Positions 28,736-57,962 of a stretch of DNA of 64,000 nt are shown here, one piece after another. Both the position numbers and the translations under genes were made by a program. Where the stretch lies: positions 1,116,001 through 1,180,000 of the forward strand of contig NW_027191453.1 in assembly GCF_011745625.1 (NCBI RefSeq). The letters run 5' to 3'. Source of the DNA: Cladosporium halotolerans. Its lineage: Eukaryota. Each line of letters starts with the position of its first letter. The first letter of the stretch is position 1. Under the pieces are notes generated by a model, which was not told the DNA's origin, did no database searches, and saw only the letters and a list, made by a program, of their open reading frames with translations.

Positions 28736-30809
28736 ATGGCGACAGCTACGGGTACGTTGGCCTTGAGAGATGCAGAGCGCGAGCTTGGATGCATACCGGT
28801 CTCGGCCACCTCGGTGGCCATACTTGCAAGGAGTCATCCTCGGCATCAGGGCTTCCACTGACACTTGTCTTGCGCTGCAACAGAAGGCTATGCCTACTCT
28901 CGCTCTTCGTCCTTTTCCGCTGCCCGGTCACCCGACACGGCGTCGCCAATCTTTCCAGAGCGTGCGATTCGCCCTCTGCCTAATCGACGCCTGAAGTCTC
29001 GACTCTCTCCTGAGCAACAGAGCTCGATAATCTACCCACCCGACCCACCGCCCATGAGCCCGACTTTGAACTTCCATGTGCAGGAAAATGGAGCAAGGGG
29101 CGGGACGACTAATGGAGGATTGGAACACGAGTACGAGCACGACCATGACCATGACCACGATCACGACCACCATCATCACCACCATCACCACGATGCGATA
29201 CCGGTACACGACCACTGCATGTGCAAGCACGATGAGGGCGACAGCGGCGACGAAGAGGTGGAGTTTGACCATCCCGACTACCGCTACGCTACAACAGGGC
29301 CTCTGGCTGTGAATGGGAAGGCGCCACTTGACTCGGTACAGCGGCGTTTGATGGAGGCTTCGCGAGGCGGGAAGCAGGTTGGACCAGGGTCAGTGGCATC
29401 GAGTGCGGACGGATACGAGAGTTTCGAGAACACAAGCAACAAGAAGAAACGGAAGATACCGCTCTCCAGCGCCTCTTCTATGCATCAGAGCAGTCTGAGC
29501 GCGGAGATGGCCAGCATGGGGATCAACAATTTTGATGGCACTCCGGACGAATATCCTCATGCGCAAAGACCGCACCACGCCGGCCCTGGCTCTTCTCCCT
29601 CGGGTACCGGCATAAGTGGCGCTGGCCGAGGCAGGTACGGTCGCCAGACAATTAGGGACGTCCGACGACCGCTTGCAAATGGTACGATGAACACGATCAA
29701 CGGCTACGGACCGAAGGCGCCTGCGCGCTCTGTCAGCGGCAGTGAAGTCAGGAGCGTGGGTGAGTCAAGTCAAGCGGCTTTTCCGAACTTCGAGAAAGCC
29801 GGCGCATTCCATCACAATTTAGGCAAGGCACTGACAACAGCTTGTTTCATTCACAGACATCTCGTCCGAAAACACCGGTGGCATCATATCGCAAGCGATC
29901 AAGACCGCAGCAGAGCAAGGACCGCTCACCCCGCAGAAGGGCAAAGAGAACGTCAGTCTTCTGCAACAATCTGCCTCTCACTCCGTCACTCCCAAGACTC
30001 AATTCACCTTCACTTGCGAATCGGACAGTGCCAGCAAGATGGTTGATCAGCAACAGGCAATGGCGGACGCCGCATACCGCGCAGGTTACGGAACACCAAC
30101 TCCGGGTCATCACCGCGGAGCCAGTGGACAAGGCATGACTCCCGGTAGTCGCATGCATGCCCAGGGCACGCAGACAACACCTTCGCGCAACGGTACCGCA
30201 CCGCGCGCGCCAGTTCAACCCAACACAGTCCCCGCAGCACAACCGCCTCCTCCAAACCAGCAACAGCCAGCTCCTGCGCCCAAGCCCAAGCCGCGTCGTC
30301 GCCCTAGTAAGGAATACGCTCTCGCGGCGCGCCAGCGCAAGCTTCAGCAAGAATACACAAACTACCACCACCGCCCGACCGGCGATAACCTGTGGATCTG
30401 CGAGTTCTGCGAATACGAAGACATCTTCGGCGTGCCTCCTTACGCTTTGATTCGCTCATACGAGATCAAGGATCGCCAGGAACGCAAGAAGGCCGCCGAA
30501 AAGCGCAGACTGCTCGAAAAGGCCAAGATGAAGAACCGCAAGGGCAAGAAGGGCGGCAAGGGTGGCAAGAACAACAACTCCGCAGCTGCACCCCCTGCTC
30601 CCGCCGGAGGCCCTGGCGCGTACGATCCGAACCTCCCTCCGCCGGAAGGGGATGACTACTACGATGACGACGAGTACGGAGACGAGTACGAACCCGTGGG
30701 CCCGGACGATCAATATCCAGCCGACTACTATCCACCGCCGCCAGCTCCAGCTAGTACGCCAGCTGTACGTCCGCCGGCGACAGGCGGTGGCGGTGAAGCG
30801 GTAGGATAG
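28736..30809 (+). CDS. Fungal protein with a His-rich tract and C-terminal CxFCEY..IFG.PP motif (Ibd2-like, tentative); exons 28736-28751, 28884-29759, 29857-30809
   Basis: Two GT-AG introns with ACTGAC branch points join ORFs 28865 and 30039 in frame: MATATEGYAYS...SPIFPERAIRPLP...GGIISQAIKTAA...WICEFCEYEDIFGVPPYALIRSYEIKD. Confidence 0.8.
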
Positions 30810-33241: not shown

Positions 33242-34319
33242 GATGGTAGATAGCTCGTTCGGTATGGAAAGGTGGGAAGAGGTCGAGCTGGGCGGGAAAG
33301 CTTTTGGATCTCGGTTCCTGCAGTTTGGAAAGTTCGCTACGGATTTGAGTCCATATACGGGTGAGTTTAGCGATTCCTGCTGTCTCACGTCCGTCGCAAC
33401 TTCTTGTGATCGTATGCGTCTCGTCGCGCACCGCGGACGTGCATGCACACAAAGCTCGTGAGGACCTGAATGGCGCGCTGATCGACATGTGAAACTGCAT
33501 TTCCAGGGTCTCTGCGAACATTCTGAGCACGGACCAAGCCGGGGCTTTGTTTGCGAGTTCTCTCACTTGTTGCAGACAGAGTAGGTCAGGTACCTTACGT
33601 TTAAATGCTATAGGCAGTATCTAGAGACAATCCTGGAAGGGTCGCCAATCTGCTCGCTTCAACGGCCTGCAACCCCTTCATAATCTCCCGTCGATTTGTT
33701 TAGGTTTGGATTTGAACCCATTGCGACCTGATCGTCCTCCATAATTATTGTAGGCAGGCAGTGGTTCGCATGTCCTGTTAGGCACTGTATCGGTTTAGAC
33801 GTGACTGGAGAAACCTAACGGTCGTACTTTAACTGGGCCCATGACGGCAAAAGACCCTTTGTTGTGGCACACATCTAATGAATAAGAGATAAGGTATGCT
33901 TCGACTCGCCGGACTTCGGCTCCTTGCTCGACGAAGTCTTCGTCACGCGGAACGACAGCTTCCCTGTCGGGGGCGAGGTCGATGGGGACTTAGTGGCGAT
34001 TATTAGTGCTCTGGGAGATGGTGAGGCAATTATGATCATGGGAAGCAATAGTGAGCTTGGCGAAGGTCAGATCGGATTGGTGACCATAGCATTAGTGGTA
34101 GTAGTGGCGTCATTCACGATGGTTCATGAGAGGAAGATATCAGGTGAAATGCTTAGAAAGATAAGAAAATCAAATTGCAACTCAAAGAGATTGTAAGGTA
34201 AATACCAAAGACAGATCAAGGAAAATCCGGAAGACAAAGGAAAACCGCGCAGACTTGCCGTGCCGATCGGGGAGTCTTCCCCTGAACTCACCACTGTTCC
34301 ATTCTCCTCGTCTAGGGAC

Positions 34320-35504
34320 TTAGTCGAAACGATGAGCGTACTCCTCGTTGACCTTCTCCATGCTTACCGTGAGAGTGTTCTTCGCCATCTTGCGAGAAGC
34401 CACGCGCTCCGGCCTCAGAGCCCTGATGTCCGGGTTAGAGGCGGGAGTCTCGGAATTGCTGTAGCCAATAGTGATGGTGCCGAACTCCTTGCCGGTAGTA
34501 GAAACAGTGACGGGGGATTCGGACTTGACTTCGAGGATGAACTCGCAGTCGTCCTCGTCCTCGTCCTCGTCCTCGGTCTCCTCCGTGGAGTTAGAACTCG
34601 GGGCGGGAGCCTCGGGCTTGTACCCGATGGTGATGTTGCCAAATTGGGAAATGGCGCTGCTCATGCTGCTGGCCTCGGCCAGCCGCTGCTCCGAAGAACA
34701 AGATTCGGCGGAAGCGTACAGAGCCTCGGCCCCGGGGTAATCGGCGAGGAAGGCGGCGCGCTCACGGGCGAAGAAAGCCTCCAGTTCCTGCTGCGTGGTG
34801 CGGATGAGCTGCTTCGCAGCAAGGATGTTAGCCCTGGTCATGGGCTGCTCGAGGATCTCGCGGCCCTTGGCGGAGTCGCGGAGGACGGCGAGCTCTTCCT
34901 TACCCCATCCCTTCTCGAAGGATTTGATGCCTTCGACCATGTTGAAGCGGGCGCCCGGGGCGCGGTAACTGTTGTGAGTGAGTTTGAAAGTAGTCTGCTG
35001 CAGAGCGATCAGCTTGCGCTGGATCGCGGCGTTCCGGGCGGTGGCCTCGTTACCAAGAGTCGCAGCCTGCCAGTGCGTCGCGCCCATAGCTGGGCAATCC
35101 TTGAGCTGATTGAGCATTGCAAGAACACCACGTTGACCGAGGTAGCGACTCGCGGCGTTGTGACGAGAGTTGCTATCGCTGTTAAGCAGAGCCTCAGTGA
35201 TGTCCTTGGAGCAACCAGTAGCCTCAATGTCCTGAGGGAGCATGGGCTCAGCCATGCTAAACTCCCGCAGAGCGCCGTCGGCATTCATACCGGCAAGCTG
35301 AAGCTGCATCTTCATGTCCTTCATGATTTTGTGCTCGCGCTCACCATAGACCGCCTTAATACCGGTGTCACCGTTTGAAGCCGCAGCACGGCATTCAGCA
35401 TTGCTGCAAGGACCGATGGTAATCTCGAAGGGGGATCTGTCGAGGTCAAAGATCTCATTCTTGGTCTCAGTATGACCACAAGAGAACAAGACACTCACCG
35501 TCAT
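34320..35504 (-). CDS. Orphan protein with an N-terminal CGH...CxxxxC motif, helical core and duplicated FGxITIGY motif
   Basis: Open frame 34320-35654. The likely ATG is 35504 (MTVSVLFSCGH), with 35555 as an alternative. The 3' end may be spliced (GTAAGC at 34367). Confidence 0.6.
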   Translation of the reverse strand: MTVSVLFSCGHTETKNEIFDLDRSPFEITIGPCSNAECRAAASNGDTGIKAVYGEREHKIMKDMKMQLQLAGMNADGALREFSMAEPMLPQDIEATGCSKDITEALLNSDSNSRHNAASRYLGQRGVLAMLNQLKDCPAMGATHWQAATLGNEATARNAAIQRKLIALQQTTFKLTHNSYRAPGARFNMVEGIKSFEKGWGKEELAVLRDSAKGREILEQPMTRANILAAKQLIRTTQQELEAFFARERAAFLADYPGAEALYASAESCSSEQRLAEASSMSSAISQFGNITIGYKPEAPAPSSNSTEETEDEDEDEDDCEFILEVKSESPVTVSTTGKEFGTITIGYSNSETPASNPDIRALRPERVASRKMAKNTLTVSMEKVNEEYAHRFD

Positions 35505-37215
35505 GCTGCTCTGACCGCCACTAGGGGCCGCAAAGAAAGGATGGAAGCTCCCCATTCCAAAGTGGACCTGCCTACTTTGATTGGGGAGGAAGAGGTGTTG
35601 GTTAGTTTGAGAGCAGTGAACACTCGATTGCAGAAGCAGAAGTTGTAGTTCCAACCTTTGCTAGGCAGTAGAGAATGTTTCGCTGGCTGACCTGGTCACC
35701 GTGCCGCTCCAAACATGCCATCTTATACCATCCCTCGTCGATTGCCAATGCGGACTTCGCAGTATCACAATGCATTGATCGTGCTCGACCTGCATGGAGC
35801 TAGATAGCAGCGCGATCTTCTTTGTTTCCTACAATGTGTTGCTGTGCTCGAGTCAAAGAGACGGGTGTATGATTAAAAGAAGGTTCTTTGTCCATTGTGT
35901 TCAACATATCGTCCGTGGTAGCCAGACACGGTCACGTGACATCGAGGTTGTCAGTATATCGTCGGTCACCGGCATACAGACTGCACGACCAGCTTGGCTT
36001 GCTTCACATTGCCCGAGATCACCTGGAAGAACAATGTGCCGCTGTATCTGCAAGCACTGTCCTGTGTGAGTCTCGATAGTTGCGAACTCAGGCGTCCTAG
36101 CTTCGGCGCGCTAGTGTCGAACCCTCAACGGGTGAGATCGTCGGTGTTTTATTTTTCTTGGAAATATATTTGATGTACTGTTGTGATTGTACCAGACCAT
36201 TGCAGCACAGTATGAGAAAGTACGTACAGTGTGGCGCGCGATGAGGGACCCTCCGTGATATGCGTGGGCGCGTGCTAGTGGTAGCAGCCCCTAGAGGAAC
36301 TCCCGCGGCGGGCAGACAAATTGTTGGATATGCTTTTGCCGGTGGGTGTCAGAGTTGCAGACGTCTCGAATCGTTGCCCTGTAGTGGTCTCGACTCGCGA
36401 GCGCGCTCGGGCTCTGACGACACAGCCATCCAGGGAAAAGGAGCGCGGGCCCCGCGAGCCGCTTGCGACTAACGGCGCCTCGCATGTCATGCCCGGCCGT
36501 GCGGGAGCGGGTGAGGCGCGCGCGCCTGCCGCGGGAGTCGTTGCAAGGTAAAAAACAGGGATTCCGCACGCAATGCACGTGACGTCGGTCGATGTAAGTG
36601 AGGCGGGCGGAGTGCGGTGACGAGGGCGAGTGCAAGTGCAGAGTCCAGGCGCGGGCAGGCGAACGGCAGGCGCGGCCAGGGTCGAGGAGATGCGGGAGAC
36701 ACACCAGGCTCATCACCAGCCGGACGGTCGCCAGCACTGACGCGGATCTGCGCGCGCTAGTGTGTGCACGCCCGGCGCGATCGTCTGCGGCGAGACGAGA
36801 CACGCCAGACGCCTGAACGACGACAACCGCTGCCACGTCGCACCCAAACATCGCACACACCCACGCTCCGCCGCCCACCACCCCGTCGTGCGCCCGCCAT
36901 TCTTCTCCCGCCCGCCTGCATTCCTCCTCCACCCTCCGCCCACCGCCCCGTCACCGCCCTCCCACCCGCGCCGCCGCACGCCGTACCGCCGTCTGCGCGA
37001 GCGTGTGTGAAGCTCTCCACGGCTCAATCCCACTTTAGCTTTGCGATGATGGCACCCACCGCCGCTCGCTGATCGCCGCCCCGTCGCCCGCCGCATACTT
37101 TCGTCCATCCCTTTCGGGCCGTCGTCGACGTATTTCGCATACACTCCATCACCACCGCTGTTCTCCAGCGCCCCAGGCTCTCTGCGCCTGATCGCATCTC
37201 GTCGCGATGCCTAAC

Positions 37216-40200
37216 ATGTTCTCGCGACGGCGAGGCAGCTCGGCCAACCCGGTACGTCATCCACCACAATTCGAGCAGCCTGCCAATGCGGCCTCCCATC
37301 CTCTGCGCCTCTGCATACCGCACCTAGCAAGGACTAACAAAGGAACAGCCAGTTGACCGAAACACCACCGCTGCCGCTGCCACAGCTGCCAGCTCTGCCT
37401 TTCTCGGCCGCGCACAGTCTCAGACCGGACTGTCCTCCGCCGCAGCTGCGGCAGCCTTGCGATCACACACCACCACGCCGGAGAACGTAGGAAATGTGCA
37501 GACCAAACGCATGGTTCGCAGAGGCTCGCAGACCTCGATTGGTAGCGGGAGTGTCATCGGGAGCGGCGTAAGAGGCGGCGTTGGACGAGGTGGCCTGCAG
37601 AGAAACAACAGCAGTGGCTCCATGACCGAGCGCACATTCAGGTCACCTTCTCCTGGCCGTCCTCAAAGCGCAATGTCCGCCGCTCCCGAGGCTCCGCCTG
37701 TGCCTAAACTCCCTGCCAGCATGCGCGGCCACCAGCGCTCCGCAAGCACAGAACCGCCTCAGCGCATGATGTCGCCAACACCTCGAGGAAGCGCCCGCGG
37801 CGTGAGCGTAGATCGCGCCAACAGTACCATGGCTAAATCTGGGCGCAAATACAACACTTTACCCGATGTTTTGGAGGTGGAGCGACAAAACAGCGTCAGC
37901 TCCGTCAACTTCTCACGCCCCATGTCCGCCCAAGGTCACTCACCCGTGTCGGCCACGTCGCCCGGAAAATCTCAGGGGTCGTGGTTCGCCGGGCCGACGG
38001 GCACCCTCAGCGACAAACCTACGCCTAAAGCCAATGGCGTAAACGGCACGCGCACACAGGACACGAGTAGCATACAGAACAAGGTCGCTTCCGCCGCCAG
38101 CAAGCCTACGAAGAAGAAGCAGATGGCAAACAACGCTCAAGGCAGTCATCTGGCACAATCAAATGAACAGACCGCACAAGAGGAAATAGTAGACCCCGTC
38201 ATGGTGTACGATCCGGCCAGTCGTACATTCATCACCAAGCCTCGTTCGCTTGAAAAGAAGCCTGAGCCACCCGCGCCGACTCTTGCAACTCCCTCGGTGC
38301 CAAAACCAGGTGAATATGATCCGAACACAAGGACTATCGTACCTGCACTACCGCCACAGCAACCCAGTATTGTCGTCACTGGCGGCGACAATCCGGCGAG
38401 ACGGGGCAAACCAACCCTGCCCGCTGTTAACACACAATTTCAGCCGCCACCTCGTAACCCTGCCCGTACGGAACAAGCTCCCGCATCCCCTCGCGCGGCT
38501 GGTATTCTTCAGAAGCAACCATCAGTCGTTCGGGAAGACCCAGAGGGTGAAGAGGAGGCTGAGGGTGGAGCGCGGGCCAAGACTTACACCAGACCGACGA
38601 ACGGGTATTCAAAGTCGCCGATCCGACCGACAAGCATCGCTGTGACACCTACTGGATCTCGCATTCGATCGGAAAGCTTGGACGTACCTCGGTCCGGTTC
38701 TGTGAGCAGTGGTCGTGGAAGAAACAACTCGAATAGCCCTGTCCGATCGGCTCACTTCTCCGCCACGCCTGTGATGGAAGCGACGCGACACGATCCACCC
38801 GAGCGAGGAACATCCCCTGCCAAGTCTGCCATGAAGCATTCGCCAGCGTCTTCGATTCGCACCGGATCACCCATGGCTGTGGCTACGTCACCTCACAGGA
38901 AGGCCATGAGTGATACTTCGGACACGCCCTCTCTCGATGGTGTTCCCAAGAAAAAGAAGAGTGTCCGTGTTAGCTTCACGGACCAGCCCGAGAAGATCGA
39001 ACTACCAGAAACGCCTGCCTCTCGCGGACAGGTGCCTCGGGAGGTATCGCCTATCGTCGACGACGATATGGAAGAGATCATGAAGCCTCGACCTGCCTTG
39101 CCATCTTTCGGCAGTGTTCGCCAGAACAGAATGCAGCAAGAGGTGGCTGAGAAGGTTACAGAACGACCGCCCGACCGCGGCAACGACTCTAGCAGCGACC
39201 ACGCCATCGGAGGCATTTTGGCTCAGAACTCAGCAAAATCTGGCTCGGACCCAGTGCCGCCCGAGGTCACTTCTAGAGATGGTCCGAACTACAGCAGTGA
39301 CGAAAGCGAGGACGAGGCCGCCCCGGCTACGGAGATGGACGCAGGTAAGGCGAGCGCCAAGGCGGTGTCCGAACAAGTTGTCGGACCCACGCCCGCATCG
39401 GCTGCGGAGAACGAGGAGGAACACGTTCCTGAAATCAGCCTGCAACCTCCGACACCCGGCGAGGAGGACAAGAAGTTGGAGCCTGCGCCTCCTCGTGCGG
39501 AATCACCGCCGTCTCAGCGCTCGTCTCTGGAGATGTATACGGTTCCCGGCGGCTGGAAAGCAGAGCCCAGCGATGACGTGCCCAAGGTCGCACCTGTGGC
39601 TGTTGACCCACCAAAGACTGAAAACCAGCAAGATGCCAGAAGCGTTGCGGACAGGGTTTTCAATGCGCCGGTGTCGCAGACAGAACCTCCTGTCTTGGCC
39701 GAGGCGTACGATCCCGCCACTGCCCTGAACCTCAGCGATATCGCCGAGTCCGACTCCGACGACAGCGCTGTCTTCAGTGACGCGGCGGAAGATCTCTCGG
39801 ATCTGGACGAGACTGGCTTCGCTTCCCTCGATGCGATTGTCGAGAGCCCGATCTCGAAGCCAAAGAAGGAGAAGCAGCCTGAGAGCCCTTCTGCACGCCA
39901 GGCAGAGAAACAGGCCTCCAAGGAGGAGACACGCGCTGCGGTCGCAGACTGGAGCGCCGCTACTTCTTACTGGAAGCAATTGAGCAAACAGCAGCGCGAC
40001 CAGATCGAGCGCAACCACCTCTCTTCGGACGATGAATACCGCCCGCTGCCTAATTCTCTTGCCAACAGGCCGAAGAAGAAAAAGTCGGCCCTGAAGCAAT
40101 CCACGTCCGTAGAGCAAGTGGACGCCGTGATGAACCCGCCAGCTGCCAAGCAGCCGCCCGCGCAGCCCGCTAAGACGACGATGAGGAAGAGCATGCGCGG

Positions 40201-41890
40201 TCCGCCCGAGCCGGCTCCGGCTCCGGCACCTACTACCGGCGGTGTGCAATTGCGATCATCCCTTCGCGAGGGCGGCGGAGGAGGCATGAGGACAAGCATG
40301 CGCAGCAGGCCTCAATCCGAAATCGTGGCTTCCAAGACTTCGCAGAGACAGAATGCCAGGCCTTTGTCGAGCGGTTCCTCGCTGCCTACTGCGGCTGCTG
40401 GCGGAGCTATGACGATGCGTCCGCAGAGTCCTGAGGAGATTTCTCAGGATGGTCCATTCCCCAGACTGGAGCCGTCAAAGCCACAACCGCAGCAGAAGCA
40501 GCAGCAGCAAACTGCGAGTGCGAAGCTCGCTCAGAAGATGCCACGGCCGCCCAAGCCTGCGGACGACTCGGATTCGGAGAGCAGCTTCAAGAAAAAGCGC
40601 AGGCCATCGCAGGCCAGTGCGGATGGCTCGGGCAAGTATGCCATGCGCCGCAGCATGCGTGCCATGTCGATCGATAACGAGCAGCGCCGTCCCACTTCGC
40701 CAAACCCTCCTCCGAAGGACCGACGGGCCTGGAGCGTGCGGTCGCTTTCGCCCACAGGCTCCTTCTTCGGCCGCAAGCAGTTGAAGGAGTCTATGCGTGC
40801 TCCGCCCGCGGAGCCCGCCGGCAAGACGCTGCGCGGTCCCAACTCCATGCGCAATGTGAAGAGCAAGGCTCCGGCCAAGGCTCCTCCGCCTGGGCCGAGA
40901 GCGAGAGCGTCCACGGGCGGCATGGCTTCCAAGTTCAAGTCTCGATTCGCGGATTCTGACGATGAGGACGACCGTGAAAGAGGACAGAAGTCCTCGTTCT
41001 TCCGCAGTCGTTTTGCTGACTCGGATGATGACGAGCCTAACAGTCCTACCGTTATACCTGCTGATTTGACGCCGGTTCGTGGCATCCCTAGGAGGCAAAA
41101 CCAGCAGGACGGCGACTCTACAGACCTCTCGGACGAGGACGACGAACGTCGCCCGTCCTCTCGCGCGCGCACCAAGCAATCCAAGCCCATGGTCCCCGAC
41201 TCCGCCGACGTCGAGAAAGCCATGGCCGCCGCCCGCCGCAACCTAGGCATGACAAACGGCAACACCACCGCTTCCACCGCTGCCGCCCAACAGCCCGCCC
41301 AAGGCAGCGCCCTCTCCAAAGGCAGCCTGCGCAAACCCGAGCCCGAACGCCCTCAAAGCCCAGCAAGCCTCTCCGCCCCGAAACGCCGCGGCTTCATGGG
41401 CAGCATCCTGCGCCGCAGCCGCACCTACAGCAACACGTCCCAGCAGCCCGCTCTGAACTCCCCCCCACCACCCCTCCCCACCGGCCCCGCAAGCCCCCGC
41501 CCAGGCAAACTCCAGCGCCGCACCTCGACCGCCACCCAGCAGGACCGCGACTACTTCTCCAACACCAACCCCAAGACCCCCGCCCCCGGCCCGGGCGACG
41601 CCAACTGGCCGCTCCCCGCCTCCGGCTCGCCCCGCCCCAACACCTCCGACGGCCTCGACCGCCACGAGCAGGCCGTGCGCCTCGCGCGCAGCATGCGCCC
41701 GGACATCGGCGGCAGGAGCTACAGCAATTCCGAGGGCGCGATCGCGGACGCGAGTGCCAACGGGGGCCACGCGCACGTGGGGTTTGCGGAGGGGGTCAAG
41801 GAGGCTGATGGCAAGGGGGTGTACAGTGCGAAGACGGGGAAGAAGAAGAAGTTTGGGATGTTGAGGAAGGCGTTTGGGTTGAATGATTGA
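37216..41890 (+). CDS. Large disordered S/P/R-rich protein with a basic amphipathic C-terminus (Seg1-like eisosome protein, tentative); exons 37216-37251, 37349-41890
   Basis: Intron GTACGT...GACTAAC...CAG gives MFSRRRGSSANPPVDRNTTAAAATAASSAF in frame with the 1477-aa ORF. Contains MRxS[ML]R repeats and ends in KKKKFGMLRKAFGLND. Confidence 0.85.
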
Positions 41891-42499: not shown

Positions 42500-45262
42500 T
42501 CAACGACGTCTCAGCAGGGAACTAATGAAACGTGAGATCCTACGCCGGTGGGTTGGCCGGACGTCACCGTCTCGCTGCCCTTCCTCGCTCATTCTGGTCT
42601 CAGCCCTCCATTCCTGCAATTGTCGAAGACGTCTAGTGGTATCCGGATGATCCGCTCCGAGCGTCTCAGTCGACTTCGCGACGCAGGCTGCCAAGAGATC
42701 CACGACAGCATCATTTTTGCGCTGAGCTCGAAAGACCTCAGCCAGATTGCCCATGGCAGCCAGCGTGATTCGGTGGCCTTCGCCGAGCACATGTTTGCTG
42801 GTTTCCAACGTTTCCTGTCCCAGACGCTCTGCTTCCTTCATATGGCCTGACCTCAGATTGAATAAGACCAAGTTGGCTTTACTCGAGAGCGTGTCTGGGT
42901 GCGTTTCTCCGAGTACGGTCTTTCTCATTTCCAAGATTCTTGAAATCAGCTCCTTCACCTCTTCTACCCGGCCCTGAGCCCAGTACGTCGAAGCTATCTC
43001 GTTCATGCTTGAAACGGTAGATGGGTGCGCTTCGCCAAGCAGCCTTCTCCGAATTGCTAGCGCTTCATTTGCCAGTCTTAAAGCATCTTCCCAATGCTTT
43101 TGAGCCCGGCGGATGGCTGCGAGGCACATCATGCTTTCCACTGTCTGTAAATTTTCACGACCGAACGTTTTCGTGTTTCTGTTCAGAAATTCAACGCCTA
43201 GTCTCTCTGCCTCTTCCAGCAACCCCTGCTTGTGGTAGATCCAAGCCATATTTCCAATAGTCCCAAGTGTCAGAGGATGATTTTCGCCCAACATTTCTCG
43301 GCTCTTGTGAAGTAACCGGCTGCTCAGTTCTTTCGCCTCATCCCATTTCTCTTGGTCGGCATAGATCAGAACTAGATCGTCTTCACTAAGTAACGTGTCT
43401 GGATCGCTTTCGCCGAGAATATTTCTTCGTGTCTTCAAAGTGCGGACACACAGCTCCTCCGCCTTCCCAAGCTGCCCTTGTTCCCGGTATATTGCAGCTA
43501 GATTGGCCATGCTTGTAAGCGTTTGTGTGTGCTTTTCGCCCAGCACGTTCATCCTACACTCCAAGGATCTTTCCATCATCCTCTGAGCGTTTGCGTACCT
43601 GCCTTTCAGTAAAGCGTACCAGCCGCTCTTATGAAGTAGAGTCCCTTGAAAGATAATTGCTTCTTCGTTGGCCACCTCCATGTCGATAGCTATCGAGGCG
43701 TGAGGGAACAGTCTCTCGCATTCCGTCCAATTGCCAGAATTAAGATCAGGACGAGGGAAAGCCTTTGCCATCTTCTTGATGAAAGCAGACTTCCACCGAT
43801 CGAGGGAAGCGTGCGTTTCAAGCCATTTGTGCAGGGAAAATCGCACCAGATCGTGCATCGTGAAGTTTGATCCGTTTTCTATTACTGAGATGAAGGAGAA
43901 GTCTCGAAGGGTCTGTATATCGCTGTCCCATTCTTGTGAGAGAGCATCGAAGCTCTCGTCTGTAGTGTCGCTGTCATCGGTAGCATCCGAGGTCCAATCC
44001 GTTGCGTCGTTGTCGTCCGAGCTATGCCAGTTTTCTTCCGCTGTATCGTCGTCGTACGAGACATCCTCCTCTTCATCTTGGTTCCCGTAGCGAAGAACAT
44101 CTTCCGGAATGGATTGTCGGTCGAAGAAACTCATCAAAGCCAGCAGGTCGGCCGCACTTTGCCGTTTCGATGCAATGTGCTCGAATGAAATCTGCCACGT
44201 GAGGATGATCGAGTTTTTTGCTTCCTGATCCCGTCGCAGATTACCGTCATTCAGGTTCAGAAGACTTTTCTTAGACTTGTCGCTTTTGTTAAGCATTCGG
44301 ACGTATTTCCGCACAGAGCATCGAGGTGCTTTTTGCTTGATGTACGCCGCTGCTTGAGCAAGCGCAAGTGGCACATAATCGAGAGAGTGTGCAAGTTCCT
44401 CCAATTGTTCGAGGTCGCCTTTTTGGTCGGTCAGTTTGTTCGCTAAGAGCGCCACCGCCTCCTCTTCTTTCATAGGCTGCACGCTCACGATATTTCTCTC
44501 CTCGACGATTTGCAAGGCTGACGCTTCGTTCCTTGACGTGACCAGTATGGCTCCATGGTCGCTCGACGGCAGGTAATCGAGATAACCCCTCCCAGACCGG
44601 CGTGTTGTATCTGAGCTGTCAGCTTTGTTGGTTTGCGAAGGTTTTCGAAGGAAGAAGTCCGCGTCGTCGGCATTGTCAAGCACCAGCAGCCACTTTCCCT
44701 TCTGTTCGTCCTGGAGCCACCCGCGGAACAGCTGGAAGATATCTGCCTGCGGGTCTTTCCTGCCGGGTACTTTGAGATCGTCGAGATTGTTCCTCACGCT
44801 CTGCTCGAAGCGCGCCGCATTGCTGGAGTGTATCCACAGAACCCACGTCGACTTTGAGGCATCTCTCACCCGATAGGTATGTTCTATTGCCAGCTGCGAC
44901 TTGCTATTGTCTCTCCGTCAGTGACCGACACTCTTGAAATACTTGTCAGAGCTGTTGCATTTACCCAACACCCCCCAGCCCAACAAGTGCGACCGCGGCC
45001 CCGGGCACCGAGAGCTTCCGATCAAGCTCTTCGGCGAGCGGCTCGCGTTGAACATAGTTTGGATCGCGCCGGAAGGGAACTGTCGACAATGGAGCCGGTG
45101 GTTCTTCTGCTGGACCTGAGATTCGTTCACCTTTAGCCTGCTACACGGTCAAATATGCATCGCCGACGTACCAGGCTGAGCATAGTGATTGTCCCCAAAA
45201 TGCACTTTAGCGTTGCCATCTATGTTCGCGCCTTGGAAGTTATGTCCCCCGTGAGCAGCCAT
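42500..45262 (-). CDS. Fungal NLR: N-terminal amyloid signalling motif, NB-ARC, TPR repeats (881 aa); exons 45262-45172, 45115-44965, 44903-42500
   Basis: Walker A GLGGVG/KSQLA is split by intron 44904-44964. Also present: Walker B WLLVLDNADD, ILVTSRN, LDYVPLALAQAAAYI (GxP region), MHD (FTMHDLV) and about 8 LG..HP.TL....NLA TPR units. Both introns are GT-AG and keep the frame. Confidence 0.92.
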
Positions 45263-46130
45263 CGGGGCGTGATGCTGGAAAAGGTAATTCGACTCCTCGA
45301 ATTGGGTATTGCGAAGACTCGTTGAAGCTGACTAGCAGTCCGTGGGCCTCGACTTGCGACAAGCACGCGGATGGAGCTCAGCCTGACTGGACGATATGCG
45401 GCTGAAGGGGGCACATGACGCTGGGCTTGCAGCATGAGGATAGCCGAGACGCTGAAACCAGTTTCTCGAGTCGTTCGCTTTTGCCGTTCGTTTGCTCATA
45501 TTATAGTTTCCAGAAAAGACTCATGGACATCGTAGGTCCTCTTAAGGGCTACAGCAGCCGATATAGGATATAGTAGTTTGGGAGTCTACCCTCCGTTTTT
45601 ACTCTTTCGACGATCCCAAAGTACATGGGTACACTAGGTAGTAGGTATGCGTCGTTGAGATCTCGAGCGACGCATCTTAGGGGAGTTTGTCTTCCGTATA
45701 GACTATAAGCTTTCGGGGAAACGGCGTGACATCTCTGTATTCCGAGTGTTCTGATCACTTGCACTGGCCCTTTCCAGTGATCGCGAAATACAGAATCTTG
45801 TGGATAGACTACAAGATGCTAGCTCACGGTGCTATGATGGACGCAGGTCACTTGTTGTCGTTCATTGGCCGACTGCCCTGAGAGAGATACCTAGGGCAAC
45901 GGTTGAGCGAAGGCGGGGTTGCGAGGACCTTGATGGATGATTGTGGGACGGGAATCAAGGTTTCTGGCCAGAGCGATTGAATTCGAAGGCATCGTATGAT
46001 TTCCCACGTGGAGCTGTGATCTTGGGGCTCCTCTATTATCTTTATTTTCCACGCTGTGAAATCCCATCAATTTGTGTGTCTTTCCTTGAACAGCCCACTT
46101 CCACGCCTCCTGAGCCCCCAACATTTCAGC

Positions 46131-47203: not shown

Positions 47204-47790
47204 AAGAGAACAGCGATTGACACAACTGGCGACCAGATTTCCAGAGTTATGAGCTCTTGTGTTTCCGTCATATGGCCACTTTGTTGTTCTTATTCTTTAG
47301 AGAGCTTTAACCACACGAGATCGATATTGAGGCCATATTCTCCAGACTTGAGAGCTCTCCTTAACTGGTATTCAAGATCGCTCCACTTCGTGATGTATCG
47401 ATGATTCGTGAAATGTTACTAATCTCGTGGATGTGGCAGGGAAGTAGATTTGTTAGGCCTCAGCAAACATTTGCATACGCCAGCATACCCGGATTTAGAC
47501 ATGTGCCGTGCCAGTGACCATCTTTTCCGGGTCATCGGGAAGGTTCGATTGCGGCTGTATGACAGTATTGACTCGTGGTACGTACGAGATGCGCCTGTTG
47601 GTCGGCTTTTGATCGCGTGCTTGCCATTAAGGTAGGCAAATGATAAAATGTCCCCTCGCCATCATGGTGTCGCACCCCTCCACATACACCGAAGCTATGG
47701 AACATATATTAGCAGAGCGTCAGTTGTATCTTTGCTTTCATTAAAGCAAACGATACCCATACGACCTCTCCGATCGATCTATCAATCGTC

Positions 47791-48791
47791 ATGTCCGCAT
47801 TCCAAGACCAGCGAGCATCGCTCACAATCCTACCTCCCGAGCTATTGCTGCAGATCATACCCAATATTCCTCATGACCCTCAGAACATCGAATCACTCAA
47901 ACTCACGAACCGACAATTCTACTCCCTCCTCACAGCACACGAGACAACTCTCGCGCCAGCAATACGAAAAACAAGCTACAAAACCTCGCCCCGACTCTTC
48001 CCCTCCCTCCCCCTCAACTCCTACACAAGCCTCACAACCCTCCACAACCGCCTCGCAACCCTCACAGCCCTGCACGACAACTGGCTGCACCTGACCTCCC
48101 ACGGCCCGGAGCTCAACTGGCTCCGCGACAGATGGGAGTCGATCCACAAAGCGGGCACCCTCCTTCTGTACCGCTTGCGCGACTGCTGCGAGAGCTTCGA
48201 CCACGGCGACAGCGACGCCGCGCACGCCGCAAAAATCGATCTACTGCACCTGCTGCCGGCTACAAGCCTTGCGTGTCTGGTTTTCAAGTGCTACTCTGCG
48301 ATCAAGATTCTGAGGGTGCATGGGCCGGAGCCGGTGCATGCTACTTTTGCGAAAGAGGATGTGGGTGTGAGGTGTGAGGTTGAGCTTGCGCTGGAGGAGA
48401 TGTTGTTGGAGCATGGACCGGAGTTCTTTGTGGCGTTGTTGGGGGCTGGGAGGCAAGGGAATGGGAAGGGCTCTTGGGCTGTGAAGTGAGTGTTGATGAC
48501 TGATCTCGATCGATTCGAGAGCTGAGCTGACCAATGGCCCTTTACAACAGTGCGTTGCAAGACGAGCTTGCAAACATGGAGTTCCGTCAATTACATTCCG
48601 CGGCCCCCACGCTGATATCGACGCTGCGCCGATCGTTCGCGCAGAAGACGAACGGGCATTTTGCGAATACTGCGACAAAGATGTGGGAGGTCCTGAGCTC
48701 GAGCGTGTTTGACGAGGTTGATGAAGATAAGATGGTGAAGATCGTTACTGGCGATACATTGGTCGGTGGCATGAGGAGAATGGGTTATTGA
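47791..48791 (+). CDS. F-box-like protein; exons 47791-48485, 48551-48791
   Basis: N-terminal LTILPPELLLQIIPNI...IESLKLTNRQFYSLL F-box pattern. Intron GTGAGT...GCTGAC...CAG joins the two ORFs in frame. Confidence 0.75.
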
Positions 48792-49198: not shown

Positions 49199-49903
49199 TC
49201 AGTTTTCATCTGTCCAGTGCCGATCAGATATGCGCTCGAGCTGGCTTTCGTCGACCGGGTCTTTCTTGAACATCCCGCGAAACGCAGATGTAAATCTCTT
49301 GCTGATTGGTTTACGCTCGAAACCATCACTCCTTCCAGGTTCATGAGATGCCATCCTAGGCTTCGATGGCCTCGGCGGCTGTGCCCTACTCATGCGACTG
49401 GACATGGTTCCAGGGAGGGCTTGAGCCGGAGGCTCGGTGGATGCAGCGAAGTTAGACTTCGTGGAGGAGGATGAGAAGCTTTCCGGAGGCGATGGAGGCG
49501 GCAGAGCCAGTGCTGCATTTGTTCGTGTTTGGAACGCAGACTCTGGTGGGAGATCAATAGATGTTTCGTACGGGGCCAGCTGAGGCGTCGTCAAAGACTT
49601 GGTATGGTGATGGCTAGGCCATTGCGCCGAAGTACTGTCACGCGACACCGGAGAGCTGTACTCGGATCTGGATGGTGCACTGTTGGCGGTGATGAGTTTT
49701 GGTTTCGGGTGTGAGACACGGTCTTCACGAGCCGAAAACGGCCACGGACGTGTTTGTTGCTCCATTTGTGTTGTTGGCGGACTTCCTGACCTTCCAACAT
49801 ATGGAAATTGGGATACTGCTCGTACTTCCCAGGGCGGAATTGTTGAGGGTGAGGCTTTCCCGCTGCCCGTTCGTCTTGAAGATGGTGGTGTTGTGGTGTC
49901 CAT
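49199..49903 (-). CDS. Hypothetical disordered S/P-rich protein with a short structured C-terminal motif
   Basis: ATG 49903 ORF (234 aa) ending in KRFTSAFRGMFKKDPVDESQLERISDRHWTDEN. Confidence 0.6.
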   Translation of the reverse strand: MDTTTPPSSRRTGSGKASPSTIPPWEVRAVSQFPYVGRSGSPPTTQMEQQTRPWPFSAREDRVSHPKPKLITANSAPSRSEYSSPVSRDSTSAQWPSHHHTKSLTTPQLAPYETSIDLPPESAFQTRTNAALALPPPSPPESFSSSSTKSNFAASTEPPAQALPGTMSSRMSRAQPPRPSKPRMASHEPGRSDGFERKPISKRFTSAFRGMFKKDPVDESQLERISDRHWTDEN

Positions 49904-52275
49904 GCTGGATATAATGTTGCTCTCGGCCGTCTCAGCTATACTTTGAGAACCTCCGGTAGGGACCAAGGTGCAGACCGTAGATGAGACGCTTGCTACTTGT
50001 TACGGTCCAAGACAGGCGTCGGCCAGTAAGCCTGCTGAGCGAGGAGGCAGTAAGGGCCTCTCGCGCCGAAGCTTGAGTCAGTAGGTCGCACGCGAGTAGA
50101 AACGCAACTGGCACACGATGAGTATTAGTCTCGGTAGAAACTCGAGAACAAGACACTCTCCTCCACATGAACAAGACCGGGAGAAATGCTTAGCATTGCG
50201 GCGTTGTGGGCTAGGGCGCCACAGCACTATAAAGGATACAAGGCATGACCAATCTTCGGCTTGCAGTGGATCCGTGAAGGATGTAGCCCAGTACGCGTAT
50301 GCTGCGAAACAGTGGCAGGCGCTCAGATAGGCTGCTTGCTTGCTTGCTTTGAGCGTGGGAGGTGGTGTGAACTACCCTGGTCCGACAGACGCGGCTTGAC
50401 TGGTTGGAAGAGCCCTGCAAAGTTGAGGCGCTTTACACAAGGATTTGCTGGATCACCTGCCATAAGAAGATCTAGCCATCCAGTGCCTTTCCTCGAGTGT
50501 GCCGATAGTGCTGTTCGCTAGCCCGCGACTGCAGCTCAGGATGAGGTGGGCACAAGGCTATTGCGAGCGCTTCCAAGGTGGTAAATAGCACTCGAGCTGA
50601 CCTCGCCGCCCCTCTCTCTTCGGGGGAGTGCTCCGGCTCTACCATAGTCGGCTCCTGTACGCGCTGGTGCATAGGTAGCCAGGGTTCAGGACACTGTAGT
50701 GCAGGCGCCTAAGGCCCGGGACGTGGGCTTCCCCGTAAGCTGCAATGTGGGCGCTAAGCCTGGGTCCTTGTCGCAAGAGAGCAGTGACCGTCTGCATCAA
50801 CGTTTCATGTCCAGCGTGAATCTTTGAGAGAAGTTTCGAGGTACTTGCTTCCACATTGGAGCACTGAGAAATCATGCAAGGACTCAAAACAACAGCTGTT
50901 TGCCCAGTCGCATGCTGCGTCCAATGGCCGGCTGCCGGCCCGAAGCATCCTGGGCCGTCCACCTGTTCTTCATTGCGGCGTTACTGCCTCCCAGTACCGA
51001 TAACGACCATCAGGCGGGGTTGCATCTGGGCCCATACATAGGCCTTTTGGGGTGCCTGCGAGCAGACATCTGACTACAAGATCTACAATGGATTTGTTGT
51101 GTGGCGGATGCCTCGGCCTGTTCGCTTTTCGCTTCTGTACAACCCATGGCCAGGACAGTACCGAAGCAATTTGGGTAAAGTATCTGTCACGTCATTTTTG
51201 TCCGTTTAGAAGCGTGACGGCATCCTTTTTGAGTACGAACAGCCTGAAAGCTGGTCAGGATCGCGACGGTGATCGCACCTCGACGACATCGCTATGTGAA
51301 AATCTCCCAGAGAGCCAATTTCCATGCGATGAGCAAAGTGTGCGATCGAAAGGCGCTCTCACTCTCGCCGCATTGCCGCACTCCAGAGCTGTCAGAGTGT
51401 GTTCGGAGGTCCTACTCGCATCTCGTCCGACGTGTTTGCGGACCTAGTGAGCGAGCGCAAAACCTCGCCTCTTCCAAAAAGGCACGGAGCGAACTCGCGA
51501 CATGTGAGGAGGACGATTCTCTCCCTTATTCGACTGATCGACCAATATCCGCTGAAAGAAGGACCTACCGAAGCGATCCTGTAAGCTTCAGCAGCCGGCC
51601 ACAAGAAGTGTTCTCCATCCTGCGAGGTCCAATCCTGCACGTCTATCAGCCGCTCCTCAGCCCGAAGTCACACGCTGGCAGCGCTGATTCGCCAGCTGCA
51701 CCTCCAGCACATCCTAGGGTGCTCCACCCCGGCGCTTACATGCCTCGCGTGGCTTGTGTGTGCCTCGCTGGGCTTCATCCTGCCATACCGTCCATCCCTC
51801 TGCCTATGCGAGGGGTGGCCGAGGCCCGTGTTAGTGTTGGTCCACGCGAGCTCGCCACACCACTCACGGCGCGCATGCGCGCCAAGTCTCACGTCCTTTC
51901 AGTGCACTTTACGGCTGCACGAGAAGGATGTTGGCGCTTACTTGTGCTCAGCTTTGAAAGGCCGCTGACACCCGGTGCTCGTGGTAAGTCCGTTTCGTGT
52001 CGCCTGGTCCATCCTTCCTTCGCACATCCAGTTCTGCGTCACTCTTGTTGTAGAATTCCAGCGGCAGCACATGTAGGAGCCGCTTCGCCTTTCCCTTGCA
52101 TTGCGCCACATTGCTTGCGTCTTGCCGGCAGTCATACACCCACTTCGCCTCATCACACCCCTTCGCGCCGGCGTCCCTGATATCTCGCGCTTGAAGACAA
52201 GGCACTCGCCGTCTTGGGGTACTCTTCCTTTGCCCGCGCACGTCGCGCGAACAGCAGCAGCATCAGCAACACAAT

Positions 52276-54906: not shown

Positions 54907-57427
54907 TCAGTCGTCGTCGCTGTCCATGTCTTCGTCGTCGTCGAGGGTTTCCATCGCTTCTTTGATGAAGGGTGAGGCCTGTGGTAAAGCTAGTCAGTCA
55001 TGATGCTCAATCTTCGTGGAGTATTAATAGTAGTAGGCTTACCTTGACGTCCAGATTGAGCGCCGTAGTGAACGCACGCAAAGCCTCGCCCTTCTCACCC
55101 AGTCCCTTCAAGCACTTTCCAAGCAAGAACCAGACATTCGCCTCGTCGGGCGCGATGTCTCTGAGCACCAAAAGCTCTTGCAGAGCGCCCTCGAAGTCGC
55201 GCATATGCATGAGCACACGGGCCTTCTTGAACCGCGCGAGCGCACTCTGAGGCGCAAGCTCCAGAGCGCGAGAGTAGCAGTCCAGCGCATTAGGCTTCTT
55301 GCGCAGCTTTTCGAAGATGACACCAATGCATACCATGAGCGTGGCGTTCGAGGGGTTGATTTGTGCAGCGATGCGGTAATGGCGCTCGGCGTCTTCGAGC
55401 TTGCCCATGCGCTCGAGCGAGCGACCGAGTCCGTACCAGCCAGTGTAGCTGCGCTTGTCTGCTGTGACAGACTTTCGGAAAGAAGATAGAGCGGCGTCGT
55501 ACTCTTCGTTCGCGATGTACTCGTGGCCCATCAGAGTCCACGCGTAGGCGAAGGATTCGTCTAGTTGAGTTGCCCGCTTGAATGCTGCGATGGCTTGATC
55601 GTGTTCTCGTGCAAGAGAGAAAGAGTTACCGATAGCACACCATGTTTCGGGAGCATCGAAATCCTGATCGCGAAGCATGTGGCAAAGGAAGGCCAAAGGT
55701 GCTTCCTTCTTCAAGTGCCAAAGCACGGTAGAGTATACTTCCATATCTTCGATGCGTGAGGGTTGCAGTTTCATAAGCCGCAGGAAGCAAGTCTCGGCAG
55801 TCCGATAGTCTCCTGCTTCATAGTGTGCCTTTGCGAGCTGAGCCAGTACCCACGGCGTCTCACGTTGGGTACTTGACAACGAGTCGAATGTTTCAATCGC
55901 GGTTGGAAGATCGTAACGTGAAGCTGCATAGCATCCAATGGCCAAATGTCGGAAGCTTTTCAGCAGTCCGGAAATCGCCTCTTGCTCAGCGACTAAATCT
56001 TTGGGTGGCGCTGGGGGAGGCTTCTGTGTGGCAGCAGTGGTGACGGTACTCGACGTCGGGGGTTTTTCGCTGTTCCGGCTGGGTGCGCGCCGAATTCTCT
56101 CCCTCTCTTTTTCCTTCTCCTTCTCCTTCTCCGCAGGATCGGGTGGCAGCATCTTGCGGTTCCCACTTACTACTCTGCCAACGGTGCCGGTCGTCCTACC
56201 TCTCGCTCCGGTGGCCGTCCTAGCTGGCCTCGCTTCTCGATCACTTCTGGTCGTAACTGAAGGGACGGGTTCAGCAGTCGTACGGCTACTCCTAGTCGTC
56301 GCAGTCTGACCAAACAGCCGATTACTCCTGCGTGGTGCCGAAGAATCTGGTCCCGCGGCACTTGACTGCGAAGCATGACCGGAGATTGTGCGTTTGTGTC
56401 CCCCACTTGTCTTCCTCGGGGCCTGGTCATTCCCGTCGGATGGATCTGACGATGTTGTTGGTTGGCCACGCAATGCAGGATGCCGTGATCGTTCTGAGGG
56501 CTCGGTATGTTGTCGTAATCTACGTGAGGGTGCCGGAGGTGCCTGGTCCTGAGTTACTCCCTCGTGTGTCGCAAGTTCACCCATTGCGATATCGTCATCG
56601 AGAGCAGCACCGTTGCCGTTAGCGGTTGGCGTGTCCCATTCTGACAGAGGCGCTTTCGAGCCGTTCGTCAAACCAGTCCTACTCCTGACTTTCGGAACTC
56701 CAAAGAGACCTCCACCCTGCTCTCCAGCGGATCTTGTGTTGAACGGGTCGTTCGAGGGCGTCAAGACGTTCGCATGGTTGAAGTTGTTGTGTTGCGCGAG
56801 CGCATTCGAAGTTGTCCTTGGTTGATCTGTGTAGATCTCCGCAACACCCGAGCTCTTCGTTGCACCACTCATCTCTGTTGTTGGCCTGAACATCTTTTCA
56901 ACATCGACTTCCGCGCCAATCTTGCAAAGCCCCTCGAACGTATCCCAAATGAATGGATTCGCCTTATGTGCCTCCACGTAGTAGTCTCCCGCTTTCTTCA
57001 AATCGCCGTGTCCGCGCCATAGCCTCGCCAACAGCGTCTGCACAGCCGCCGCATCGGGCGTGTGCCGCCGTGAAGTCTCCGAGTGTTTGTTCCAATTGCT
57101 CTTGCCATACCACAAGCTCTTCGCCTTCTCCAGCGCCGTCGTGCCCTCCAGGTGCTTGCCTAGCTCCAAACAAGCTTGCGCAAAGATGTACGCGCAGCCC
57201 AAGTGCCTCCCGCTCGAGCCATACTTTTGCGCCGAGTCGTAAGCGGCCTTCGATCTTCGTTGTCGCAAGTAGGTCAACGCGAGCAGGTGCGAGCTGTCGG
57301 GGTTCCTGGGTTCGAGTGCGTAGAGGCGGCCGGCGAGGAAATTTGCGTTGTCGAGAAGCTCGTTGTCGATGTGGTAGAAGATCAACTGTCGCAACTGCGA
57401 GGCGGCGATTCCGGTTGTTGGCGACAT
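54907..57427 (-). CDS. CDC27: APC/C subunit Cdc27/Apc3 (BimA/Nuc2); exons 57427-55043, 54978-54907
   Basis: N-terminal TPR dimerisation region, disordered middle, C-terminal TPR block (MEVYSTVLWHLK, PETWCAIGNSFSLAREH, YAWTLMGHEY, WYGLG). Last intron GTAAGC...ACTGAC...CAG. Confidence 0.96.
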
Positions 57428-57962
57428 GCCTAGGTGAGCGGCCGGTGGTCGTCGCTAGGGTGTAGTCGTAGGGAAAAGTGCCAGTCGTGGCACAGGGAAG
57501 AAGTGAAGGTGAGAGACCGGAACAGCACGTGTTTCCGCGTCGGCCAACATTGGCTGCTGAACGGAGTATCACGAGCAAGGCGGCAAGAGCGAATCCAGGC
57601 TGGGTGTTGTCGCGGTGCAGGATGCTCAAATCCAGTTGTTCATCTCATTTCGAACACAGTCGTGCTTGAACAACGACTCCGGCTTGTTTTGATTGTCGCT
57701 ATTGTATGCTCGAAGCTCGTACAGTGAGAGCAAATGCTCAGTTGGTCACGTAATGGTCGTTGCCGTGCTGTGAGACTTGTGTTGTTGCAGCGCTTGTTTG
57801 TGGCCCGTGCTTTCGTTCGCGGGGGCTGCCCGATCGATTCTCAATAATCCGCAGCCAAGCATATAGCATCGTCAGAGGCCACTGTCTCACAGCCTAAGAT
57901 CGTCGGTCTTCCTGGGATCCCTACCTAATAGTTAGTGTAGCGGGACTTCAATTCACTTCACC

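Follow-up and report, generated by a model that had tools for sequence, protein, structure and literature searches.

Fungal NOD-like receptors (NLRs) in which an N-terminal amyloid motif precedes an NB-ARC domain and a TPR array are represented in Podospora anserina by FNT1 and PNT1, as described in PMC7885112. At the N-terminus of FNT1 is one R0 motif, which is homologous to both of the prion-forming domain (PFD) repeats at the C-terminus of the cell-death effector HELLF; the FNT1 gene adjoins hellf. The PNT1 open reading frame (ORF) is interrupted by a single 54-bp phase-1 intron (ORF nucleotides 95-148) after a first exon of 94 nt; the segment PNT1(1-31) is prion-forming and activates HELLP, and the PNT1/HELLP system was reported in P. 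anserina and in Chaetomium globosum. The gene analysed here lies on the minus strand of a 64,000-nt stretch of Cladosporium halotolerans (NW_027191453.1), which is called the window below and in which all positions are counted. We read it as an intact NB-ARC-TPR NLR with a single HET-s-related amyloid motif (HRAM) of HRAM3-like type, or r0, in its first 30-31 residues, which probably signals to an unlinked effector. The gene belongs to a known class of amyloid-signalling NLRs, nearest to FNT1 and PNT1: the architecture, the motif family and the lack of an adjacent effector have all been described previously.

The gene comprises three exons (Table 1). The model in which a small first exon is spliced onto the NB-ARC domain had been put forward in a preliminary description of the locus, and its coordinates and sequence were as claimed: the spliced coding sequence (2646 nt) translates into 881 residues, with its sole stop codon at the end, and the product is identical, letter for letter, to the NCBI protein P0004 ('hypothetical protein WHR41_00923 [Cladosporium halotolerans]', named 'Kinesin light chain' in UniRef). 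The first exon, encoding the peptide MAAHGGHNFQGANIDGNAKVHFGDNHYAQP, had been called hidden; it is already part of this public protein and was absent merely from a naive ORF track, and the word is therefore not supported. Both introns are canonical (GT-AG), the exon boundaries match the conserved boundaries in relatives, and the Walker A motif GLGGVGKS is whole only after splicing across intron 2. By our own count, 16 of the 79 related loci gave tblastn matches that began at query residues 81-83, which bears on the position of intron 2. A longer effector domain upstream, which the same description had named as a possible objection, was considered and discarded: an in-frame stop codon is found 24 codons upstream of the ATG, the upstream ORFs gave only noise in Pfam, and the start of the neighbouring kelch gene is 868 nt away.

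The full-length protein was compared with Pfam and matched NB-ARC at 28.6 bits (cut-off 23.5), TPR_10 at 185 bits (E 6e-56), TPR_12 at 160 bits (E 2.3e-47) and DUF7779 at 24.3 bits, under the cut-off of 27. With the Walker A motif intact and the NB-ARC domain, above its cut-off, followed by a strong TPR_10/TPR_12 array, the protein has the layout of a fungal NB-ARC-TPR NLR (PNT1/FNT1-like), as had been proposed. With the first 420 residues encoded by exon 3 as query, 1822 proteins were returned at E ≤ 1e-3, and the 120 matches listed were fungal NB-ARC-TPR proteins throughout. No nucleotide-level tandem array was detected in the TPR region by a tandem-repeat search over the gene, which returned one trivial 22-nt repeat only, so that the region gives no sign of recently homogenised hypervariable repeats. 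Between NB-ARC/DUF7779 and the TPR array, an acidic low-complexity insert rich in D, E, S and T was observed (window about 43740-43860; P0004 residues about 350-390); it is missing in P0005 and P0006, the two relatives nearest to P0004 in the database, where a short QVQRHTT stretch takes its place.

The published position rules for HRAMs (PMC4518210) demand Gly at position 19 without exception, a hydrophobic residue at each of positions 5, 8, 10, 16 and 18, and a large polar one at both 3 and 20; R or K is preferred at position 15. When G23 was taken as motif position 19, the exon 1 peptide agreed with every rule: this Gly is also invariant in our alignments A1, A2 and A5, the hydrophobic core positions are occupied by F9, A12, I14, V20 and F22, and positions 15, 3 and 20 by K19, H7 and D24, respectively. 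The motif is present in a single copy (residues 5-25), followed by the linker and the NB-ARC domain; its start at residues 5-7 agrees with positions 5-9, where most HRAMs begin (PMC9815663). The peptide is His-rich with few charges, which fits the description of r0 motifs on the NLR side in PMC4518210. In that study the HRAM subclasses are distinguished by position 3 (N for HRAM1, Q for HRAM2, H for HRAM3). His is found there in the peptide (H7) and is invariant in repeat 1 of all nine rows (9/9) of alignment A2. The motif was accordingly named HRAM3-like, a putative subclass that goes by this one residue. The core pattern of the PP (RHIM-like) motif is G-hydrophobic-Q-hydrophobic-G (PMC9815663); the peptide reads N-F-Q-G-A and contains no G-x-Q-x-G.

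Membership of the motif family was assessed with profiles. A hidden Markov model (HMM) was built from 10 repeats of five double-repeat proteins, two of them with confirmed HeLo domains, and the peptide itself was excluded; motif HMM searches were run with filters off on all stop-to-stop ORFs of at least 20 residues in six frames. The peptide scored 31.0 bits against this effector-only HMM, versus a maximum of 12.6 bits in 5000 shuffles, and the exon 1 ORF of the NLR ranked first (E 5e-7) among 21,809 ORFs from the six-frame translation of the window and of 79 related loci.

Profile A1, made of this N-terminus and those of two Cladosporium paralogues (3 sequences), was searched against 1.84 billion representative proteins and yielded 44 proteins at E ≤ 1e-3, 28 of which were covered by a Pfam scan. 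P0136 (A1 E 5.9e-5) and P0163 (A1 E 6.5e-4) are HeLo proteins with two C-terminal motif copies (Pfam HeLo E 2.5e-14 and 4.5e-13, respectively; P0163 also matched PF11558 at 9.2e-4, under the cut-off). Six other matches (P0141, P0144, P0148, P0149, P0159 and P0166) carry NACHT/NPHP3_N and one motif copy near the N-terminus, and the fragments P0142, P0158, P0152 and P0128 show 43-50% identity across all 30 residues of the peptide. For the motif-bearing NLR and HeLo proteins, the library-wide E-values of the A1 search were 1e-4 to 1e-8. A follow-up search with profile A2 added P0168 of Viridothelium virens, a full-length HeLo protein (HeLo E 2e-52) with a double repeat. In alignment A2, the peptide is aligned gap-free with repeat 1 of the double-repeat effectors, and H, A and G are invariant. 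Against the PDB, profile A2 (double repeat, peptide included) matched only HET-s prion-domain chains (2mus, 2kj3, 2lbu and 2rnm; E 1.1e-6 to 1.8e-6), in register; the earlier claim of a single N-terminal motif in gap-free register with HET-s repeat R1 was reproduced by this route.

Five of the 44 A1 matches (P0127, P0129, P0134, P0153 and P0156) were judged false, being low-complexity repeats. Other HRAM-like sequences were recorded as side observations. P0145 (357 aa) has a ubiquitin-like domain (PF22893, E 3.6e-8) and an HRAM-like motif at both the N- and the C-terminus, an unusual placement. P0126 (442 aa) shows weak C2H2 zinc-finger matches, a clear ankyrin-repeat region and three internal HRAM-like stretches (residues about 275-330), with a sub-threshold PF11558 match, and places the HRAM motif outside the usual NLR and HeLo contexts. 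The N-terminus of P0014 (Cladosporium fusiforme, 754 aa) opens HRAM-like (AGHSYQGNSVG) and then diverges (HMM 7.5 bits), which points either to decay of the motif or to an annotation that puts the splice site in the wrong place.

A number of results weigh against an HRAM-bearing receptor with an unlinked effector, and they concern the motif, the transcript and the partner. As for the motif, the bare position pattern is not rare: written as a loose regular expression, it had 7 matches in the six-frame translation of the window, and the profile tests were therefore used. The 30-residue peptide matched no Pfam family at E ≤ 10, PF11558 (HET-s_218-289) and PF17108 (HET-S) included, and the r0-only profile A5 had no match in the PDB at E ≤ 10. 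Furthermore, the peptide or its matches served as seeds for the linking profiles, so that the 31-bit score is not fully independent. Pfam searches with exon 2 and with the 60-residue stop-to-stop ORF gave no match, paralogue P0031 reached PF17108 at E 0.087 at best, and the ESM Atlas returned no usable feature match for residues 1-32, with meaningless structural neighbours (TM 0.24-0.34). In PMC4518210, PF11558 was matched by just 38 of 155 double-repeat proteins, and a Pfam miss is therefore expected for a divergent single repeat. The regular-expression matches and the Pfam result would both suit a chance resemblance, in which a short disordered leader happens to fit a loose hydrophobic/polar pattern. 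This is hardly credible in view of the distance between the peptide and its shuffles, its first rank among the ORFs, the library-wide E-values, the in-register link to solved HET-s and the position of the peptide, which is that of the motif slot in 52 clade relatives.

As for the transcript, expression and splicing are without RNA support in runs X1, X2, X5 and X19, and the gene model is one predicted from sequence and annotation. Neither splice joint (45172/45115 and 44965/44903) was seen in the read and contig data of these runs: the contigs of run X1 are unspliced through both introns, run X19 is DNA identical to the window, which probably derives from it, and run X5, the only declared RNA library, gave two 151-nt contigs in exon 3 only.

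As for the partner, scanning all six frames of the window with the motif HMM revealed no second motif at E ≤ 10, and Pfam detected no HeLo, HeLo-like, SesA, PNP_UDP or patatin domain in the 20 ORFs of at least 150 residues between 23.6 and 64 kb, whose Pfam content was PHO4, SRR1, kelch, BIM1-like, an APC3/Cdc27-type TPR protein and a C2H2 zinc finger. In the intergenic region beside the NLR gene, five minus-strand ORFs (62-92 aa) gave only noise in Pfam and were blank with the motif HMM. Word-indexed protein searches yielded two weak negatives: no candidate effector among short proteins sharing words with residues 1-40, and, among longer proteins searched with the A2 double repeat, 5 matches at E ≤ 10 with no C. 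halotolerans effector. The preliminary description had seen no effector in the intergenic region, which is borne out, and neither an effector nor a second motif was recognised in the rest of the window.

A small or intron-rich effector gene inside the window might have escaped the ORF, regular-expression and HMM scans: Pfam covered only ORFs of at least 150 residues, and several ORFs have no family (27012-27966, 28862-30809, 34197-35660, 47713-48489, 49199-49999 and 51248-52180). We consider such a gene very unlikely, since the motif HMM, applied to six-frame ORFs as short as 20 residues, recovered only r0 at E ≤ 10, and an intron splitting the 21-residue repeat in both copies is itself unlikely.

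The lack of a neighbouring effector had been presented as an unusual, 'orphan' state, and this part of the earlier account does not hold: unlinked receptors are the published norm. In Table 1 of PMC9815663, class NLR13 (HRAM) comprises 131 NLRs versus 16 neighbour hits and class NLR12 (HRAM3-like) 110 NLRs versus 4 neighbour hits, the ratio of NLRs to effectors averaging 5.7:1 in the latter, and signalling between non-adjacent genes is treated explicitly in a section of its own; in PMC4518210, an adjacent NLR was found for 98 of 155 effectors. By these surveys most motif-bearing NLRs are unlinked, and the orphan state is therefore not unusual. The same figures bear on the alternative that the receptor is a true orphan or relic, its effector having been lost from the genome or its motif serving only to stabilise the oligomer of the NLR itself, with no templating of a second protein. 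Such a receptor would have no partner in the window or in the protein searches, as was found, and its metagenomic relatives L073 and L012, which carry the same motif type, likewise have no motif-bearing neighbour in their flanks (10 kb and 2.3 kb upstream, respectively). However, the motif breaks no position rule and is fully intact, as are the reading frame, the Walker A motif and the TPR array; the literature records both unlinked pairs and effectors shared by several NLRs (the NLR12 ratio above); and the negative searches are weak, being limited to the window and to word-indexed protein searches. We therefore regard an orphan or relic as a minority possibility, and an intact receptor with an unlinked effector remains the reading that we favour. 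The latter is based on the observed gene model, domain architecture, motif family membership and lack of a partner in the window.

The proposed mechanism was derived by analogy with NWD2/HET-S, FNT1/HELLF and PNT1/HELLP. Binding of a ligand to the TPR array would lead to oligomerisation of the NB-ARC domain, which would gather the N-terminal motifs and allow them to adopt a beta-solenoid-type amyloid fold. This fold would then serve as a template for the motif repeats at the C-terminus of a cell-death effector, probably a pore former of the HeLo type. The gene of this effector probably lies elsewhere in the genome, outside the approximately 42 kb downstream and 19 kb upstream spanned by the window, and the cognate repeat or repeats would be expected to resemble GHNFQGANIDGNAKVHFGDN. 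By the same analogy, amyloid formation, templating, cell death and the unlinked partner itself are predicted properties of the system.

The position of the motif was compared among relatives. In 77 of the 120 listed homologues the P-loop lies within 140 residues of the start, and the linker is conserved in these 77 proteins with a short N-terminus. Among them, 49 have a G-x-Q-x-G (PP-like) motif at the same place (three GLQGG cases were classed as 'other') and three, all from Cladosporium (P0004, P0008 and P0031), have an HRAM-like motif; the remainder are truncated or unclear. At the DNA level, the linker was present in 63 of 80 sources (79 metagenomic loci and the window). Automatic models of exons 1 and 2 were obtained for 42 of these 79 loci plus window, and 34 of the 42 have a phase-1 intron. 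A recognisable motif is encoded in 26 of the 42 models, with a phase-1 intron in 25 of the 26 (22 are PP-like; the 3 HRAM-like ones are those of the window, L012 and L073). The acceptor of intron 1 is 38 nt before the PF.RD motif of the linker in 17 models, as in the window, and 29 nt before it in 6; exon 1 mostly measures 88-106 nt in the modelled relatives. Since 25 of 26 modelled relatives with a recognisable motif and PNT1 share this layout, a separate motif exon followed by a phase-1 intron is, as judged from these gene models, a trait of the whole clade, PNT1 included, and ancestral to it. In the literature covered by a full-text search, no discussion of the intron behind the motif exon or of exchange of motif modules was found: the word 'intron' is absent from PMC4518210 and PMC9815663, and occurs only in the methods of PMC12258605 and in an annotation note of PMC7885112.

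Changes of motif type were traced on a quick maximum-likelihood tree built from 57 rows of the NB-ARC region, in which the window protein was grouped with P0008, P0031, L073 and three PP-type Cladosporium proteins (SH-aLRT 100), and L012 (HRAM) with the PP-type proteins P0017 and P0022 (SH-aLRT 99), so that the supported branches of this tree force 2 changes of motif type. A single origin of the five HRAM-type rows was not rejected by an approximately unbiased (AU) test (p 0.11; log-likelihood 32.9 worse). For a recent change, the metagenomic paralogues L012 (HRAM, positions 2140-2700) and L062 (PP, positions 1460-2015) were compared: they are 84.6% identical (220/260 aligned positions) over a stretch that begins some 20 nt short of the exon 1 donor and continues through intron 1 and exon 2 into intron 2, versus only 38-42% identity further upstream, where the 5' flank, the start codon and the motif core lie. 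The 5' module seems to have been replaced recently and as a whole, with a breakpoint inside exon 1, with the reservation that L012 is a metagenome contig, for which an assembly chimera is possible. In addition, a contig of run X1 from a relative with flanks 90-98% alike (45048-45180 and 45304-45678 align) has the 123-nt block at window 45181-45303, which corresponds to exon 1 minus its last 9 nt plus 41 nt of 5' untranslated region, swapped for a block of the same length too diverged to align. Within the locus, the stretch that codes for the motif core may change faster than any other or may have undergone conversion.

The preliminary description had called the motif exon a ready unit for exon shuffling. 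In favour of this, the phase-1 intron is kept across relatives with different motif families, and PNT1 has the same layout; the sole resolvable recent swap, that of L012/L062, breaks inside exon 1 and not in the intron, about 20 nt from its end, and the 5' flank was replaced too, which argues against intron-mediated shuffling in that case. The motif changes on the NB-ARC tree (at least 2), the L012/L062 break and the diverged block in X1 hint at another arrangement: the promoter, start codon and motif core of PNT1-like NB-ARC-TPR receptors could together form an exchangeable 5' cassette that rewires a receptor from one effector pathway to another, between PP and HRAM, and that perhaps also evolves or converts at a much higher rate than the remainder of the gene. 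The Cladosporium gene would then be a product of rewiring, with a HeLo rather than a HELLP-type partner. We offer this tentatively, as a possibility that falls short of being probable.

The features of the locus are compiled in Table 1. The divergent neighbour had been described as a kelch gene, in agreement with its kelch Pfam match. The other neighbour had been labelled Seg1-like; at 37328-41890 (+) we found a 1520-residue frame of S/P/A-rich low complexity that matched no Pfam family at E ≤ 0.01. Further away, at 55007-57454 (-), an 815-residue ORF with ANAPC3 and multiple TPR matches resembles the APC/C subunit Cdc27/APC3; it is a second TPR protein and no NLR.

Table 1. Coordinates of the NLR gene and adjoining features in the 64,000-nt window.
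Feature	Position	Strand	Details
Start codon (ATG)	45262-45260	-	from sequence
Exon 1	45172..45262	-	91 nt (30 codons + 1 base); whole N-terminal amyloid-motif module (putative); phase-1 intron behind
HRAM-type r0 motif core GGHNFQGANIDGNAKVHFGDN	45188..45250	-	21 residues (protein residues 5-25)
Intron 1	45116..45171	-	56 nt, GTACGT..TCTCAG, phase 1
Exon 2	44965..45115	-	151 nt; conserved linker PAEEPPAPLSTVPFRRDPNYV and first part of Walker A loop (GLGGVG)
Intron 2	44904..44964	-	61 nt, GTAAAT..CAATAG, phase 2; divides the Walker A codons
Exon 3	42500..44903	-	rest of NB-ARC, acidic low-complexity insert, TPR_10/TPR_12 array, stop codon
NB-ARC part in exon 3	about 44054-44902	-	Pfam
TPR_10/TPR_12 array	about 42596-43612	-	Pfam
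Stop codon	42500-42502	-	from sequence
Intergenic region	45263..46130	.	868 nt, between the NLR gene and the divergent kelch gene; without effector ORF
Kelch gene ATG	46131	+	divergent from the NLR gene

This work adds a clear HET-s-type amyloid-signalling receptor for Cladosporium (Dothideomycetes), in a gene so far known only by the two database names given above. Perhaps more useful is the clade-wide slot, a first exon of about 90-100 nt with a conserved phase-1 intron, which is filled by different motif families and in which at least one recent switch appears to have replaced the entire 5' module. If this generalises, it would offer a concrete route to studying how fungal immune receptors are reassigned to different cell-death executioners.

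Among the known systems, NWD2/HET-S resembles the Cladosporium gene in having one r0 on the NLR versus two repeats on the HeLo effector, and in its identical register (A 14, V 16, G 19); according to PMC7885112, NWD2 differs in carrying WD repeats and not the NB-ARC-TPR layout. The likeness extends to the solved HET-s(218-289) beta-solenoid (2rnm, 2kj3, 2lbu and 2mus), which is matched at E about 1e-6 by the double-repeat profile that contains the peptide. Unlike canonical HET-s (HRAM1), which has N at position 3, the peptide has H, and it is missed by PF11558 and PF17108. The His at this position is shared with HRAM3 of PMC4518210, a subclass that Table 1 of that study reports for Dothideomycetes, among them Cochliobolus sativus and Westerdykella ornata. 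As in classes NLR12 and NLR13 of PMC9815663, where NLR-side motifs far outnumber neighbouring effector motifs, the receptor has no effector gene beside it; NLR12 is mainly found in Sordariomycetes with single-repeat PNP_UDP effectors, whereas the look-alikes found here are double-repeat HeLo proteins.

FNT1/HELLF shares the receptor architecture and the HET-s-related motif superfamily with the Cladosporium gene, which, going by the description of FNT1, differs in having no effector within the window. PNT1, likewise compared by its description, has a PP (RHIM-like) motif and a neighbouring hellp, whereas the Cladosporium gene has an HRAM-type motif and no adjacent effector. In both, the layout is that of the NB-ARC-TPR clade, here with a 91-nt exon 1, a 56-nt phase-1 intron and the motif within residues 1-30, and most database relatives of the Cladosporium gene carry the G-x-Q-x-G motif of the PNT1 type.

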